Origin: a virus
Taxonomy: Duplodnaviria; Heunggongvirae; Uroviricota; Caudoviricetes
DNA length: 6,007 nt
Reading direction: 5' to 3' (one strand)
Virus record (IMG/VR): IMGVR_UViG_2778261536_000003
Span: 1 to 6,007 of that record
In this document: positions 1,467 to 6,007 of the stretch, one piece after another
Layout: every line of letters starts with the position of its first letter
How positions within the stretch are numbered: the stretch's first letter is position 1
Notes under the pieces: model-generated
Seen by the model: only the letters and a program-made list of their open reading frames with translations
Database searches by the model: none
What the model was told of the DNA's origin: nothing
Program-made: the position numbers and the translations under genes

Positions 1467-2312
1467 ATGACAAATACAGCAAAAATACTCAACTTCGGCA
1501 GAGGTAACTTTGCCGAACAGGAGCGAAGAGTGGCTGATATCGATGATGGTTACACCAGATTCGCTAACGAGCTGCTGGAAGCTATCGCAAGTGCCGATTT
1601 AACCGCTCGCCAGTTGAAAGTTATGCTGGCCTACGTCCGGAAAACATATGGATTCAATAAGAAAACAGATCGAATAGCCGATGAGCAAATTTCTCAGTTA
1701 ACAGGACTGTCAAGGCAGAATGTTAACAAGGCTAAAAAAGAACTGATTTCAATGAATTGCCTGTTTATGGATGGAAATCAAATCGGTGTAAACAGGGAGG
1801 TATCTGCGTGGCAATTCAGCAAGTGTCTCCAAGTTAGCAACTTTGTCTCGAAGTTAGAGACAAAAAATGTCTCCAAATTAGAGACACTCAATGTCTCGAA
1901 GTTAGAGACACACAAAAGACATTCTTTAAAGACAAAAGAAAATATTAATAAACCCCCTATATCCCCCAAAAAAGTTTCTCAGAAGTTCGACCCGCTAGAA
2001 ACAGAGTTGCCTGATTGGTTATCAGCAGAAACATGGTTGTCGTGGGTTACCTATCGCAAGGAGATAGGTAAGTCGATCAAGTCTAAGCAAAGTGTCACTC
2101 AGGCTATCAACGTTCTAAGCAGAAGTCTGGAGAAGGGATATACACCTGAAGAAATTATAAACCAGAGCATCGCCAGTGGTTGGCAGGGGATTTTTGAACC
2201 CAAGACTCCAAAGGGGAAATCTCAACCGAGGCCGCAGCAGCGAGCTATGCAGGAAAACTTTACCGCCAAAGATTACGGGCAAACTGAAATGCCTTCATGG
2301 GCGCAGGAGTGA
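1467..2312 (+). CDS. O: Replication initiator O (lambda O-like N-terminal origin-binding domain; divergent C-terminal domain)
   Basis: 281 aa ORF with RBS AGGAG. N-terminus MTNTAKILNFGRGNFAEQERRVADIDDGY is very close to lambda O (MTNTAKILNFGRGNFAGQERNVADLDDGY as recalled). The gene contains the iteron array and AT-rich tract typical of ori-lambda. The C-terminal ~110 aa does not resemble the lambda O P-binding domain as I recall it. Confidence 0.9.
   Translation: MTNTAKILNFGRGNFAEQERRVADIDDGYTRFANELLEAIASADLTARQLKVMLAYVRKTYGFNKKTDRIADEQISQLTGLSRQNVNKAKKELISMNCLFMDGNQIGVNREVSAWQFSKCLQVSNFVSKLETKNVSKLETLNVSKLETHKRHSLKTKENINKPPISPKKVSQKFDPLETELPDWLSAETWLSWVTYRKEIGKSIKSKQSVTQAINVLSRSLEKGYTPEEIINQSIASGWQGIFEPKTPKGKSQPRPQQRAMQENFTAKDYGQTEMPSWAQE
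1824..1910. repeat. Origin iterons: four ~19-bp dyad-symmetric repeats (TGTCTC-N7-GAGACA) at 20-24 bp spacing inside O
   Basis: Seen directly: 1824..1842 tgtctccaagttagcaact (degenerate), 1844..1862 tgtctcgaagttagagaca, 1868..1886 tgtctccaaattagagaca, 1892..1910 tgtctcgaagttagagaca. They encode the repeated peptide VSKLET in the O linker. Same architecture as ori-lambda, but the iteron sequence differs from the lambda iteron. Confidence 0.85.
1911..1975. other. AT-rich DNA-unwinding region of the replication origin
   Basis: Immediately 3' of the iterons: cacaaaagacattctttaaagacaaaagaaaatattaataaaccccctatatcccccaaaaaag. A-tracts and low GC match the AT-rich unwinding element of lambdoid origins. 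Confidence 0.65.
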
Positions 2313-2314
2313 AT

Positions 2315-3208
2315 ATGAATACGACAAATGGTTACAATCTGGCACTGCAAAGGCAACTTGTAGACTCAAAAATCAATGACATTTCTGATCTGAAACAGAA
2401 ACTTGAGTTTAGCAAAATTGGATCAGCATCAGATGGAATGTCAGTTACCAGCACAGTGGAAGAGTGCGAGAAACACGGTAAATATACTTCCTATGAGAAA
2501 TATCTGACCATCTCAGGAAAAAGAATTACTTCAAGTAAATCTGAGTGCCCACAGTGCCTTGAGGAGAAAATTCGTAAGAAAGAGATTGAACGTGAGCAGG
2601 CAGAACAAAGAGCAAGACAATCAAAAATTGAATATTTGTTGAATTCTCTCAATATTCCAGAGAGGTTCAAAAATTGCACTCTTCAGAATTATGAGCCTGT
2701 TAACGATGATGCAAAGCGAGTTCTTAAGGTATGCCAGGCATATGCCAGTAAGTGGCCTGAACGCCTTCAAAAAGGTGGCGGACTGGTCATGTGTGGTAAG
2801 CCTGGAACTGGAAAGAACCACCTTGCACTGGCTATCGCTAGGCACGCCATTATCGAGCATCAAAGCTCTGTGATATTTACCACTGCGTTGAAAATTGCCA
2901 GAGAGTACAAATCAACATGGTCTAAGGCCGCAACCAGAACTGAAGAAGAAGTCATTAGGCAATTTACGCATCCTGACTTGTTAATAATCGATGAGGTTGG
3001 CGTGCAGTTCGGCAGTGATGCTGAAAAGCTAATCATGTTCGAAATTATCAACACCAGATATGAATACATGAAGCCAACAATCCTGATTAGTAATCAGAGC
3101 AAAGATGAACTGTCTGCATTCATTGGTGAGCGTGTTATTGACAGGATGAATGATGGCGGCGGGTGCACTCTTGCGTTTACATGGGATAGTTACAGGAGCA
3201 GATCGTGA
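2315..3208 (+). CDS. DnaC-type AAA+ helicase loader (phage replication protein replacing lambda P)
   Basis: ATG at 2315 with AGGAG (2305..2309), 2 nt after the O stop. The C-terminal domain closely resembles E. coli DnaC as I recall it: Walker A GKPGTGKNHLALAIA, Walker B DLLIIDEVG, and C-terminal WDSYRSRS. The N-terminal ~120 aa is distinct, with C-x2-H ... C-x2-C (CEKHG...CPQC) and a charged coiled-coil-like stretch (EEKIRKKEIEREQAEQRARQSK). Confidence 0.9.
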   Translation: MNTTNGYNLALQRQLVDSKINDISDLKQKLEFSKIGSASDGMSVTSTVEECEKHGKYTSYEKYLTISGKRITSSKSECPQCLEEKIRKKEIEREQAEQRARQSKIEYLLNSLNIPERFKNCTLQNYEPVNDDAKRVLKVCQAYASKWPERLQKGGGLVMCGKPGTGKNHLALAIARHAIIEHQSSVIFTTALKIAREYKSTWSKAATRTEEEVIRQFTHPDLLIIDEVGVQFGSDAEKLIMFEIINTRYEYMKPTILISNQSKDELSAFIGERVIDRMNDGGGCTLAFTWDSYRSRS

Positions 3209-3495
3209 CTGGAAAAGAAATCATCCTGGAATATCTGAAAACTCATGAACAATTCTCCCCACATGAATTAGCACTGATCACAGGAATACCAAATAACAGA
3301 ATCGCTCAAGCAGCAAGGCATATGGTGAAACAAGGGCATTTGAGTGTTGTTGAGCGTAAGTGGAAGACGGTTATTTATGCAAAACGCAAAGTGAAGAAGG
3401 AGCCAATTAAAAGAAATCCAGATGGTACTGGGTGGGGATGTGCAAATCCAATGACGGCGTTTATTAATAGGGCGCTTATGGAGGTAAGGCAATGA
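3205..3495 (+). CDS. Small basic protein with predicted winged-HTH DNA-binding fold, function unknown
   Basis: 96 aa ORF with GTG start overlapping the loader stop (GTGA) and AGGAG at 3194..3198. Motif SPHELALITGIPNNRIAQAARHMVKQGHL looks like a wHTH followed by a Lys/Arg-rich tail. Sits between the replication genes and tR2, where lambda has ren. I do not recognise it as a named family. Confidence 0.55.
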   Translation: MTGKEIILEYLKTHEQFSPHELALITGIPNNRIAQAARHMVKQGHLSVVERKWKTVIYAKRKVKKEPIKRNPDGTGWGCANPMTAFINRALMEVRQ

Positions 3496-3568: not shown

Positions 3569-4009
3569 ATGAAAAAACTAACCTTTGAAATTCGATCTCC
3601 GGCACATCAGCAAAACGCTATTCACGCGGTACAGCAAATTCTTCCAGACCCAACCAAACCAATCGTAGTAACCATTCAGGAACGCAACCGCAGCTTAGAC
3701 CAGAATCGAAAGCTTTGGGCTTGCCTTGGTGACGTCTCTCGTCAGGTTGAATGGCATGGTCGCTGGCTGGATGCAGAAAGCTGGAAGTGTGTGTTTACCG
3801 CAGCATTAAAGCAGCAGGATGTTGTTCCTAACCTTGCCGGGAATGGCTTTGTGGTAATAGGCCAGTCAACCAGCAGGATGCGTGTAGGCGAATTTGCGGA
3901 GCTATTAGAGCTTATACAGGCATTCGGTACAGAGCGTGGCGTTAAGTGGTCAGACGAAGCGAGACTGGCTCTGGAGTGGAAAGCGAGATGGGGAGACAGG
4001 GCGGCATGA
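3569..4009 (+). CDS. ninB: NinB (Orf) recombination mediator
   Basis: 146 aa from the ATG at 3569 (track ORF 3551.. starts at an upstream TTG). Sequence [31 protein letters not shown]... appears essentially identical to lambda NinB as recalled. G-rich RBS gggggagaggg upstream. Confidence 0.92.
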
Positions 4010-4188
4010 GACGACAGCGACGAAGTATCACCGACATCATCTGCGAAAACTGCAAATACCTTCCAACGAAACGCTCCAGAAATAAACGCAAGCCAATCCC
4101 AAAAGAATCTGACGTAAAAACCTTCAATTACACGGCTCACCTGTGGGATATCCGGTGGCTTAGAGAACGTGCGAGGCATACAAGGTGA
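4006..4188 (+). CDS. ninE: NinE (60 aa)
   Basis: ATG at 4006 overlaps the ninB stop (ATGA). The 60-aa product [30 protein letters not shown]... matches lambda NinE (orf60) as recalled. Track ORF 3946..4188 is an upstream extension of the same frame. Confidence 0.85.
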
Positions 4189-4355
4189 TTGACCCAAATC
4201 GAAGTTATGAACAAGAAAGCGTCGAGCGAGCTTTAACGTGCGCTAACTGCGGTCAGAAGCTGCATGTGCTGGAAGTTCACGTGTGCTCCGATTGCTGCGC
4301 AGAGCTGATGAGCGATCCGAATAGCTCAATGTACGAGGAAGAAGACGATGAATGA
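4185..4355 (+). CDS. ninF: NinF (56 aa, Cys-rich putative zinc-binding protein); not present in the supplied ORF track
   Basis: GTG at 4185 overlaps the ninE stop (GTGA), with GAGG 8 nt upstream. My translation is [56 protein letters not shown], stop at 4353..4355. It resembles lambda NinF (orf56) as recalled and has CxxC ... CxxCC. It fills an otherwise unexplained gap in a translationally coupled operon. Confidence 0.7.
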
Positions 4356-5070
4356 GTTAATAAATGGCAATGCCATCAAAATGACAAGCATTGAAATCGC
4401 TGAGTTGGTGGGTAAGCGTCATGACAATGTGAAACGTACCATCGAAACGCTGGCTAAAAATGGTGTTATCCGGCTTCCTCAAATTGAGGTTTCCGAAAGA
4501 ATCAATAACTTAGGGTTCAATGTTCAGTACGAGCATTACGTCTTCGAGGGCGAACAAGGTAAGCGAGATAGTATTGTTGTTGTTGCCCAGTTGTCGCCAG
4601 AGTTCACCGCTCGCCTTGTTGACCGCTGGCGAGAGCTTGAAGAAGCTGCGGTTAATATCCCCAAAACGCTACCGGAAGCGTTGCGCCTTGCTGCTGACCT
4701 TGCTGAGCAGAAAATGCAACTGGAAAACCAGCTCGCAATTGCCGCACCTAAAGTTGAGTTTGCCGATCGAGTTGGCGAGGCCAGTGGAATTTTGATTGGA
4801 AACTTTGCAAAGGTTGTTGGTATTGGTCCAAACAAACTGTTTGCGTGGATGCGCGATCACAAAATCCTTATTGCTTCAGGTGCCCGGCGCAATGTGCCAA
4901 TGCAGGAATATATGGAGCGCGGCTATTTCACAGTGAAAGAAACAGCAGTCAATACAAATCACGGAATACAGATATCGTTCACCACAAAAATCACCGGGCG
5001 TGGTCAACAGTGGCTGACCAGAAAGCTGCTCGATAACGGAATGCTGAAAGTAACAGGGGAGGCTGCTTAA
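4348..5070 (+). CDS. Phage regulatory protein with Rha-like N-terminal domain and KilA-C/ANT (antirepressor-type) C-terminal domain
   Basis: 240 aa ORF with RBS GAGGA, start overlapping the ninF stop. N-terminus (NAIKMTSIEIAELVGKRHDNVKRTIETL) looks like the phage Rha DNA-binding domain; C-terminus (APKVEFADRVGEASGILIGNFAKVVGIGPNKLFAWMRDHKILIASG) looks like the ANT/KilAC domain. Family assignment is from memory of the domain signatures, not from a search. Confidence 0.78.
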   Translation: MNELINGNAIKMTSIEIAELVGKRHDNVKRTIETLAKNGVIRLPQIEVSERINNLGFNVQYEHYVFEGEQGKRDSIVVVAQLSPEFTARLVDRWRELEEAAVNIPKTLPEALRLAADLAEQKMQLENQLAIAAPKVEFADRVGEASGILIGNFAKVVGIGPNKLFAWMRDHKILIASGARRNVPMQEYMERGYFTVKETAVNTNHGIQISFTTKITGRGQQWLTRKLLDNGMLKVTGEAA

Positions 5071-5360
5071 TGGCTAACCTACGCAAAGAAGCGCGCGGCA
5101 GAGAATGCCAGGTACGTATTTACGGCGTATGCAATGGCAACCCTGAAACTACAGTTCTGGCACATTACCGGATGGCTGGAATTTGCGGAACGGGAATGAA
5201 GCCTGACGACCTGATCGGTGCATGGGCTTGTAGTGACTGCCACGCGGAGATCGACCGACGCACAAGGATTCTCGACAACAAAGACGCCAGACTTTACCAC
5301 CTCGAAGGCGTGATCAGGACGCAGGCGGTATTGCTGAAGGAGGGGAAGATTAAGCCATGA
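5070..5360 (+). CDS. ybcO: YbcO-like DUF1364 protein (putative Zn-dependent nuclease)
   Basis: 96 aa; start overlaps the upstream stop (TAATG). MANLRKEARGRECQVRIYGVCNGNPETTVLAH...CSDCHAEIDRRT resembles E. coli DLP12 YbcO as recalled, with conserved Cys/His. Lies immediately upstream of rusA, as in DLP12. Confidence 0.8.
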   Translation: MANLRKEARGRECQVRIYGVCNGNPETTVLAHYRMAGICGTGMKPDDLIGAWACSDCHAEIDRRTRILDNKDARLYHLEGVIRTQAVLLKEGKIKP

Positions 5361-5719
5361 ACGAATATCAGTTTGTGCTTCCATACCCGCCGTCGGTGAA
5401 TACCTACTGGCGAAGACGGGGAAGCCAATACTACATCAGCGATAAAGGCCAGAAATACCGAAAAGACGTTCAGCAAATCATCCGCCAACTTAAGTTAGAC
5501 ATTTTCACCAAATCACGACTCCGCATCAAAGTCATCGCAGACGTTCCAGACTCCCGCCGCCGCGACCTCGATAACATCCTGAAAGGTTTACTCGACTCCC
5601 TTATCCACGCCGGATTTGCGGAAGACGACGAGCAATTCGATGACATTCGCGTAATTCGTGGTGTGAAAGTACCAGGCGGACGGCTTGGAATAAAAATCAC
5701 CGAACTGGAGAACGTATGA
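5357..5719 (+). CDS. rusA: RusA Holliday-junction resolvase
   Basis: 120 aa; start overlaps the ybcO stop (ATGA). Similar to E. coli RusA as recalled ([15 protein letters not shown] versus [34 protein letters not shown] versus [31 protein letters not shown] versus GGRLELTITEM). Confidence 0.9.
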   Translation: [120 protein letters not shown]

Positions 5720-5904
5720 ACGCCACAATTCAAACGATACCAGAGCTTCTTATCCAGACACGAGGCAATCAGACCGAAGTGGCGAGGATGCTTTCCTGCG
5801 CAAGAGGAACAGTGCTCAAGTACAACCGAGACAGCAAAGGCGAGCGTCACGTAATAGTTAACGGCGTCCTGATGGTCAAACAGGGCAAGAGGGGAAGACC
5901 ATGA
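5716..5904 (+). CDS. ninH: NinH-like small DNA-binding protein
   Basis: 62 aa; start overlaps the rusA stop (ATGA). TIPELLIQTRGNQTEVARMLSCARGTVLKYNRDSKGERHVIVNGVLMV resembles lambda NinH (TIPDMLVEAYGNQTEVARRLKCSRGTVRKYVDDKDGKMHAIVNDVLMV as recalled). Confidence 0.85.
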   Translation: MNATIQTIPELLIQTRGNQTEVARMLSCARGTVLKYNRDSKGERHVIVNGVLMVKQGKRGRP

Positions 5905-6007
5905 GACTCGAAAGCGTAGCTAAATTTCACTCGCCAAAAAGCCCGATGATGAGCGACTCACCACGGGCCACGGCTTCTGACTCTCTTTCCGGTACTGATG
6001 TGATGGC
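5901..6007 (+). CDS. Q: Late-gene antiterminator Q, lambda type (5' partial; continues beyond the window)
   Basis: ATG at 5901 overlaps the ninH stop (ATGA). The translated N-terminus MRLESVAKFHSPKSPMMSDSPRATASDSLSGTDVM appears identical to lambda Q as recalled. Runs off the right edge. Confidence 0.9.
   Translation, partial: MRLESVAKFHSPKSPMMSDSPRATASDSLSGTDVM

Follow-up and report, generated by a model that had tools for sequence, protein, structure and literature searches.

Organization of the roi locus

The window (the whole stretch of viral DNA analyzed, 6,007 nt in length) carries at positions 4348–5070 of its plus strand an open reading frame (ORF) that starts with ATG and encodes 240 amino acids, exactly where the first-pass annotation had placed a gene of that size. 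The genes and features of this locus, with the gene named as identified below, are as follows:

4185–4355, plus strand: ninF, the upstream neighbor (Pfam NinF, E-value 7.6e-14)
4335–4355, plus strand: ninF/roi junction, with GAGGA at 4335–4339, the roi ATG at 4348–4350, and the ninF stop TGA at 4353–4355
4348–5070, plus strand: roi coding sequence (ORF list; 240 aa plus stop)
4381–4644, plus strand: N-terminal Rha-type winged helix-turn-helix domain (aa 12–99; Pfam PF09669)
4411–4539, plus strand: hypervariable segment (aa 22–64, second helix and wing; from the DNA alignment with HK022 and HK620)
4477–4489, no strand assigned: 13-bp exact palindrome CCTCAA-A-TTGAGG, candidate Roi operator
4500–4512, plus strand: exact match AATCAATAACTTA to the IHF consensus WATCAANNNNTTR, inside roi
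4723–5031, plus strand: C-terminal ANT/KilAC domain (aa 126–228; Pfam PF03374)
5070–5360, plus strand: ybcO (Pfam YbcO, E-value 1.4e-43)
5357–5719, plus strand: rusA (Pfam RusA, E-value 1.1e-16)
5716–5904: ninH (Pfam search of the window)

The Pfam search placed NinB, NinE, and NinF upstream of the gene and YbcO, RusA, and NinH downstream, and the neighbors are therefore those named earlier, when the gene was described as lying between ninF and the ybcO-rusA pair. The ORFs of roi and ninF overlap by 8 nt, with the roi ATG inside the end of ninF (ATGAATGA), and the roi stop overlaps the ybcO start in the sequence TAATG at 5068–5072; HK022 and HK620 have the same ninF/roi junction. From these overlaps, we reasonably infer that the translation of roi is coupled to that of ninF. 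A scan of positions 3900–6007 for promoters and terminators detected nothing promoter-like and no more terminators than expected, and an Rfam search of the window gave no match.

The replication region of the window has features of its own. Three tandem 24-bp repeats (TGTCTCGAAGTTAGAGACACACAA-like) occur at 1844–1915 within an O-type replication gene (1467–2312); they encode repeated VSKLET peptides and are probably origin iterons. The partner gene at 2297–3208 encodes a DnaC/IstB-like ATPase loader (PF01695, phrog_50), in place of which HK022 and HK620 have a DnaB-like helicase “P”, so that the replication module differs from that of these two phages despite near-identity in the nin region. 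A 96-aa ORF (3205–3495) occupies the position of lambda ren; its GTG start overlaps the loader stop, and it showed a weak MarR-like helix-turn-helix match as well as matches to phrog_1687 and phrog_142, “Ren-like exclusion protein”. Q lies beyond the end of the window.

Identity and distribution of roi

The encoded protein shared 99% amino acid identity with HK620 Roi (AAK28878) and 88% with HK022 Roi (AUM59832), in both cases over all 240 residues. When positions 4100–5400 were compared with a phage collection by megablast, the whole query matched HK620, HK633, and HZ41 with 97% nucleotide identity, followed by HK97 (94%) and HK022 (92.7%), and these phage records annotate the gene as roi or “DNA-binding protein Roi”. 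As judged from these alignments, the ORF at 4348–5070 is roi, a full-length orthologue of the HK022 and HK620 gene.

The gene order around roi is conserved. HK022, HK97, HK620, and mEp506 all have the one order ninB-ninE-ninF-roi-(gp66/HkbD = ybcO)-rusA-ninH-Q, and when gene order was determined by tblastn, roi directly followed ninF in 84 of 89 loci. The gene had been described as “inserted” into the nin operon, a description that does not hold, since this is the ordinary position of roi in those four phages and in 84 of the 89 loci. The usual module downstream of roi is ybcO-rusA, with ninG instead in at least 11 of the 89 loci, including the Stx phages PA30 and Min27 and contigs encoding a Roi 99–100% identical to that of the window. 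Lambda has ninF-ninG-ninH at the same position, and both ybcO-rusA and ninG are annotated as junction resolvases. Because roi can precede ybcO-rusA as well as ninG, the module that takes the place of ninG is ybcO-rusA, and roi forms a separate module ahead of whichever is present. We accordingly rejected roi as a ninG replacement, as the two genes are adjacent in many phages (at least 11 loci, PA30 and Min27 among them). The earlier remark that the gene lies where lambda has ninG was thus correct as to position, but the implied substitution was not, because roi directly precedes ninG in at least 11 loci. The comparison of gene content across relatives that the first-pass annotation had proposed hence yielded a conserved order, ninF-roi-(ybcO-rusA or ninG)-ninH-Q.

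roi was present in 1110 of 5426 complete Escherichia coli genomes (~20%), with up to four copies per genome, and 557 viral contigs encoded a relative. The viral-contig scan gave near-identical alleles only, and the allele diversity described below was therefore taken from protein clusters and individual records. In the allele of the Stx1a phage Stx1_131719 (L084:1501–2223), codon 45 is an in-frame stop (CAA to TAA), and insertions of IS629 in roi have been reported for O157 Stx2a phages (PMC4587872); in view of this stop and these insertions, roi is dispensable. In a prophage of phage Gally (OV696608) with a 98.8% identical Roi, macrophage-specific antisense transcripts have been described that begin at Q and reach as far as roi (PMC9928086). 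The identity with the HK620 and HK022 proteins, the conserved gene order, and the occurrence in 1110 of 5426 genomes mark roi as a gene already known and named, and a very common one, in HK022/HK97/HK620-type phages. The discovery value of the locus itself is therefore small: the naming and characterization of roi date from 1996, many phage records annotate it, and about one-fifth of complete E. coli genomes carry it.

Domain architecture and predicted structure of Roi

The earlier description of an Rha-type N-domain joined to an ANT/KilAC C-domain was confirmed by Pfam, in which both models exceeded their gathering cut-offs. Phage_pRha (PF09669) matched aa 12–99 over the whole model (E-value 6.4e-9; 36.7 bits against a cut-off of 29.9), and ANT/KilAC (PF03374) matched aa 126–228 (E-value 1.8e-32; 112.3 bits against a threshold of 25.3). 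The stricter NCBIfam Rha model TIGR02681 reached 17.9 bits, below its cut-off of 45.95, and matched only aa 12–36. The protein also matched PHROG 63 (phrog_63), “anti-repressor Ant”, with an E-value of 5e-99. No ORF6N, P22AR_N, or P22AR_C domain was found in Roi by the Pfam search, no family of the PADLOC anti-phage defense models matched at an E-value ≤0.01, and a sequence search of the PDB gave no relative at an E-value ≤1.

The C-terminal half of Roi has close relatives in phage P1. Roi aa 104–233 shared 68% identity with the C-domain of P1 KilA, and aa 73–234 shared 59% identity with the protein that a P1 record encodes at the ant1/ant2 position. The ORF for this protein is 347 aa long, contains a shorter internal form of 264 aa, and comes after a 73-aa icd-like ORF. 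The BLASTP alignment begins at Roi aa 73 and aa 95 of the Ant2 form, leaving the N-domains unaligned, and the N-terminal part of P1 Ant1 had no match in Pfam, to Rha or otherwise. In the P1-like record MH445381.1 (L094:12593–13636), the coding sequence at the ant1/ant2 position is annotated “KilA protein” (12842–13636); it is preceded by the 73-aa icd-like ORF and followed by the true kilA (the one with KilA-N) and repL, has a 347-aa upstream in-frame form, and is probably a mis-annotated Ant1/Ant2.

Some Roi variants differ at the N terminus. In P0006 and P0007 (294 aa), an N-terminal part of NinB (PF05772) is fused at Roi aa 23, which looks like the product of a deletion joining ninB and roi, and P0001 and P0002 (304 aa) have a 64-aa N-terminal extension.

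An AlphaFold2 (AF2) model built from a deeper alignment (137 sequences, down to ~21% identity to Roi) had a mean pLDDT of 74. In the N-domain (aa 11–100), block means were 78–91 and the modeled elements were a strand (aa 11–13), two helices (14–21 and 25–37), a hairpin (45–52/58–67), and a helix (68–82). A linker helix (aa 101–130; block means 54–59) and a low-confidence stretch (aa 131–150) lead to the C-domain (aa 151–230; block means mostly 82–89, with a dip to 68 at aa 201–210), which was modeled as helices at 150–157, 161–170, and 186–190, a hairpin (194–203/206–215), and a helix (217–229). Both domains were thus modeled as a strand, a helix-turn-helix, a β-hairpin, and a helix, and the tip of the N-domain hairpin is encoded by the codons of the IHF motif. 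This modeled fold fits a DNA-binding protein but is not decisive. With only 24 closely related alleles in the alignment, the AF2 model reached a pLDDT of just 47, and a Foldseek search with that model gave no significant match.

The N- and C-terminal halves of Roi may be distantly related duplicates, as related DNA at 4477–4489 (CCTCAAATTGAGG) and 4747–4759 (CCTAAAGTTGAGT) encodes PQIE in the N-domain and PKVE in the KilAC domain, and both modeled domains have the same topology.

A hypervariable segment with a covarying palindrome

The segment at 4411–4539 is flanked by near-identical DNA, and the rest of the gene is 97–100% conserved, with sharp boundaries between the two. Among 120 protein clusters, the aa 22–64 segment occurred as at least eight allele types; across six types, pairwise nucleotide identity within it was 47–77%. 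The sharp boundaries suggest that the part encoding the second helix and the wing of the N-domain has undergone mosaic exchange.

The exact palindrome at 4477–4489 lies within this segment, ten bases upstream of the IHF consensus match, and its center is the first base of codon 46. The corresponding sequences of the alleles, with their arm matches, were as follows:

Window / HK620: CCTCAA-A-TTGAGG, 6/6
Cronobacter homologue: CCTCAA-A-TTGAGG, 6/6
P0009 type: CCTGCA-T-TGCAGG, 6/6
HK022: CCTGCA-T-TGCAGC, 5/6
PA30: CCCCCA-A-TGGTGG, 5/6
P0076 type: CCGCCA-A-TGGCTG, 5/6
Stx1_131719: CCTTAA-A-TTGAGG, 5/6
Min27: CCTTCA-A-TGCAAA, 3/6

At least 5/6 arm matches at the same center were thus found in five other E. 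coli allele types and in the Cronobacter homologue, three with a different sequence, and the single mismatched base of Stx1_131719 is the one that makes its in-frame stop. Within roi, only ~1% of centers reach at least 5/6 arm matches. In a pair count that took in only seven E. coli-phage alleles and left out the Cronobacter homologue, 85.7% of the cells were complementary, compared with 68% in shuffles, none of 500 of which reached the observed value; three of the six palindrome pairs showed compensatory double changes, and sliding the partner by one to three columns as a control reduced complementarity to 21–43%. The symmetry therefore appears to have been kept between alleles by compensatory changes in a fixed register, although the amino acid constraint on coding DNA may account for part of this covariation, as may linkage, the whole element lying in a single recombining segment. 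The recognition helix is encoded in that segment too, and its variation along with the palindrome may be no more than a result of this linkage. Within alleles (58 distinct sequences, 102 variable sites), one variable site fell in the palindrome and one at an N position of the IHF motif, about the expected number.

Since a stem of 6 bp closed by a single-nucleotide loop is unable to fold, the natural reading of the palindrome is a binding site for a dimeric protein, which makes the sequence at 4477–4489 a candidate for the published intragenic Roi site. It occurs once in the complete HK620 genome, with no further copy within one mismatch. In HK022, a relative of the roi palindrome with two mismatches (CATGCAATGCAGC) occurs at the start of HK022_60 (L001:2255–2267); it could be a second site or a chance match. 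Matches to the HK022 palindrome with at most three mismatches numbered 10 against a mean of 3.2, above all 200 shuffles, with palindromic sites counted on both strands.

An IHF consensus inside roi

The match at 4500–4512 is the only exact IHF consensus match in the 6,007-nt window. As 64 of 200 shuffles of the window contained at least one such match, the consensus alone is weak evidence. In a 7.3-kb stretch of HK022, the sole IHF match occurs at the homologous nucleotide of roi, and the match shared by HK022 and the window is an island of identity within the diverged part (approximately 4411–4539). In the HK022 record AF069308, the palindrome lies at approximately 34784–34796 and the IHF consensus at approximately 34807–34819. 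All six allele types that carry the motif have the same motif codons, ATC, AAT, and TTA, and the codon ahead of the IHF core always ends in A, whichever amino acid (R, I, or K) it encodes. The segment has 13 degenerate codons whose amino acid is invariant; four are also invariant as codons, and three of these are the motif codons; across the six alleles, codon invariance therefore holds for 3/3 motif codons versus 1/10 of the others (hypergeometric estimate, p ~0.014).

The Min27/933W-type and Cronobacter-type alleles had no exact IHF motif. The two sites are not universal in the family, because the Min27/933W-type allele lacks both the IHF match and the palindrome and the Cronobacter allele lacks the IHF match. 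The conserved intragenic IHF consensus and the allele-specific palindrome beside it are new detail, a small addition rather than a new kind of system.

Proposed role of Roi

The 1996 study of HK022 by Clerget and Boccard reportedly found Roi to be a sequence-specific DNA-binding protein with a site in roi itself, close to an IHF site, and with binding that IHF stabilizes. Roi is also said to block lytic growth in a host lacking IHF, roi point mutants reportedly growing on IHF-deficient hosts, and its C-terminal half was reportedly noted to resemble P1 Ant1 and KilA. This resemblance was borne out by our alignments (59% and 68% identity, respectively). Two later papers cite the 1996 study for a DNA-binding protein of HK022 that affects lytic growth in IHF mutants (PMC3430580, PMC4587872), and for the Rha proteins of phi80 and P22, too, a deleterious effect on phage growth has been described in hosts deficient in IHF (PMC4936722, PMC8951638).

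Taken as a whole, the best explanation, which we consider likely, is that roi is a dispensable accessory gene within the delayed-early PR operon and that its product binds its own gene beside an IHF site. A Roi dimer would recognize the 13-bp palindrome at 4477–4489 through its N-terminal Rha-type winged helix, and IHF would bend the DNA at 4500–4512. The resulting Roi-IHF nucleoprotein complex would lie in the PR transcription unit, ~1.4 kb ahead of Q, from where it could influence either the expression of roi or read-through to Q. The palindrome would change along with the variable helix/wing segment that contains it, giving rise to Roi specificity types, and the KilAC C-domain would be a second helix-turn-helix-like module, common to P1 KilA and Ant1. 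The IHF consensus and the palindrome fit the biochemistry reported in 1996 and suggest such specificity types. An allele-specific palindrome by a conserved IHF site could show how Roi recognizes its own gene and whether alleles differ in specificity.

A further step would be to regard the segment as a specificity-type cassette, in which the recognition surface and its own operator by the IHF site are inherited or exchanged together. Roi would then act in trans only on prophages with the same allele, for example on PR read-through to Q, or its KilAC domain would act on repressors or RecA. We hold this to be rather unlikely. If it were true, Roi specificity cassettes or the action of KilAC would constitute an unrecognized layer of prophage cross-talk in polylysogens.

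It is improbable that Roi acts in trans as an antirepressor that is expressed from PR upon induction or infection and inactivates the repressors of co-resident prophages or a host regulator. The family is labeled “anti-repressor” in PHROG 63 and RefSeq, the C-terminal half of Roi (aa 73–234) is 59% identical to the protein at the P1 ant1/ant2 position, and P1 Ant1 and Ant2 are genuine antirepressors, as summarized in PMC9043618. Furthermore, with up to four roi copies per genome, polylysogens with several alleles exist. However, the KilAC domain of Roi is closer to that of P1 KilA (68%) than to that of Ant1/Ant2 (59%), so that KilAC is a module common to both and no marker of antirepression; to our knowledge, P1 KilA is not known as an antirepressor. 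In Stx phages such as Min27, the gene immediately upstream of roi is a P22-type ant (ORF6N + P22AR_C) in its own right, and the repressor encoded in the window itself is a LexA-like S24 protein of the self-cleaving kind. Because roi sits in the PR operon, it would be expressed only after derepression, that is, once the phage's own repressor has failed. In the AF2 model, both Roi domains look like DNA-binding winged helix-turn-helix modules. The searchable literature, in which Roi gets only brief mentions, contains no experimental report of antirepressor activity of Roi. An antirepressor role would thus be a guess taken only from the KilAC/ANT domain name; the annotations “anti-repressor Ant” and “antirepressor KilAC domain-containing protein” carry that name over and do not amount to a demonstrated function of Roi.

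We also think it improbable that Roi is a dual regulator like AriS, with an N-domain that regulates the phage and a KilAC domain that dampens the host SOS response, probably via RecA, and so tunes the induction of co-resident elements. In the Listeria phage protein AriS, the ANT/KilAC domain alone is enough for SOS inhibition (Azulay et al. 2022, PMC9043618), and AriS-like proteins pair KilAC with interchangeable N-domains that include pRha, which is the architecture of Roi (PMC9043618). The inhibition was, however, observed in Listeria only and upon overexpression, and SOS transcription was unchanged at the native level (PMC9043618). Finally, a host-killing or cell-division-inhibiting action through KilAC, like that of phi11 Gp07 KilA-C or P1 KilA, is very improbable: the 68% identity to the P1 KilA C-domain and the filamentation and growth arrest of E. 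coli overexpressing phi11 Gp07 KilA-C (PMC5944126) count for it, but the latter phenotypes come from overexpression of a distant homologue, roi is present in ~20% of E. coli genomes, and the phage-growth effect is cited only for IHF mutants (PMC3430580, PMC4587872).

Comparison with known systems

The P22-type Ant proteins (ORF6N/P22AR), such as the Ant of Stx phages, have no domain in common with Roi and share with it only the “antirepressor” label and the adjoining position in Stx phages, where the P22-type ant is a separate gene that co-occurs with roi. [quoted passage not shown]

P1 KilA and Ant1/Ant2 resemble Roi in their C-terminal ~130–160 residues (68% for KilA and 59% for Ant1/Ant2). 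Their N-terminal parts are different, being KilA-N in KilA and without a Pfam match in Ant1, whereas that of Roi is Rha-type, and regulation differs between the P1 context (immI and the lytic replicon) and the lambdoid PR operon in which Roi is encoded.

Rha of phi80 and P22 and Roi have a parallel IHF-mutant phenotype, each being described as harming phage growth in hosts that lack IHF (PMC4936722, PMC3430580). The Roi N-domain passes the Pfam Phage_pRha model but misses the stricter NCBIfam Rha model, and Roi, set against these Rha proteins, has a KilAC C-domain. Furthermore, P22 rha lies in the late operon (PMC4936722), whereas roi lies in the nin region.

The closest counterparts are the Roi proteins of HK022, HK97, and HK620 (Clerget and Boccard 1996, J Bacteriol 178:4077), which are of equal length, share 88–99% full-length identity with that of the window, and are encoded at the equivalent place between ninF and the resolvase module, with ninH and Q farther downstream. 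HK022 and HK97 Roi differ from the window's Roi in having another allele at aa 22–64 (second helix and wing) and, within it, another palindrome (CCTGCATTGCAGC, compared with CCTCAAATTGAGG in the window), whereas between HK620 Roi and the Roi of the window there is practically no difference.
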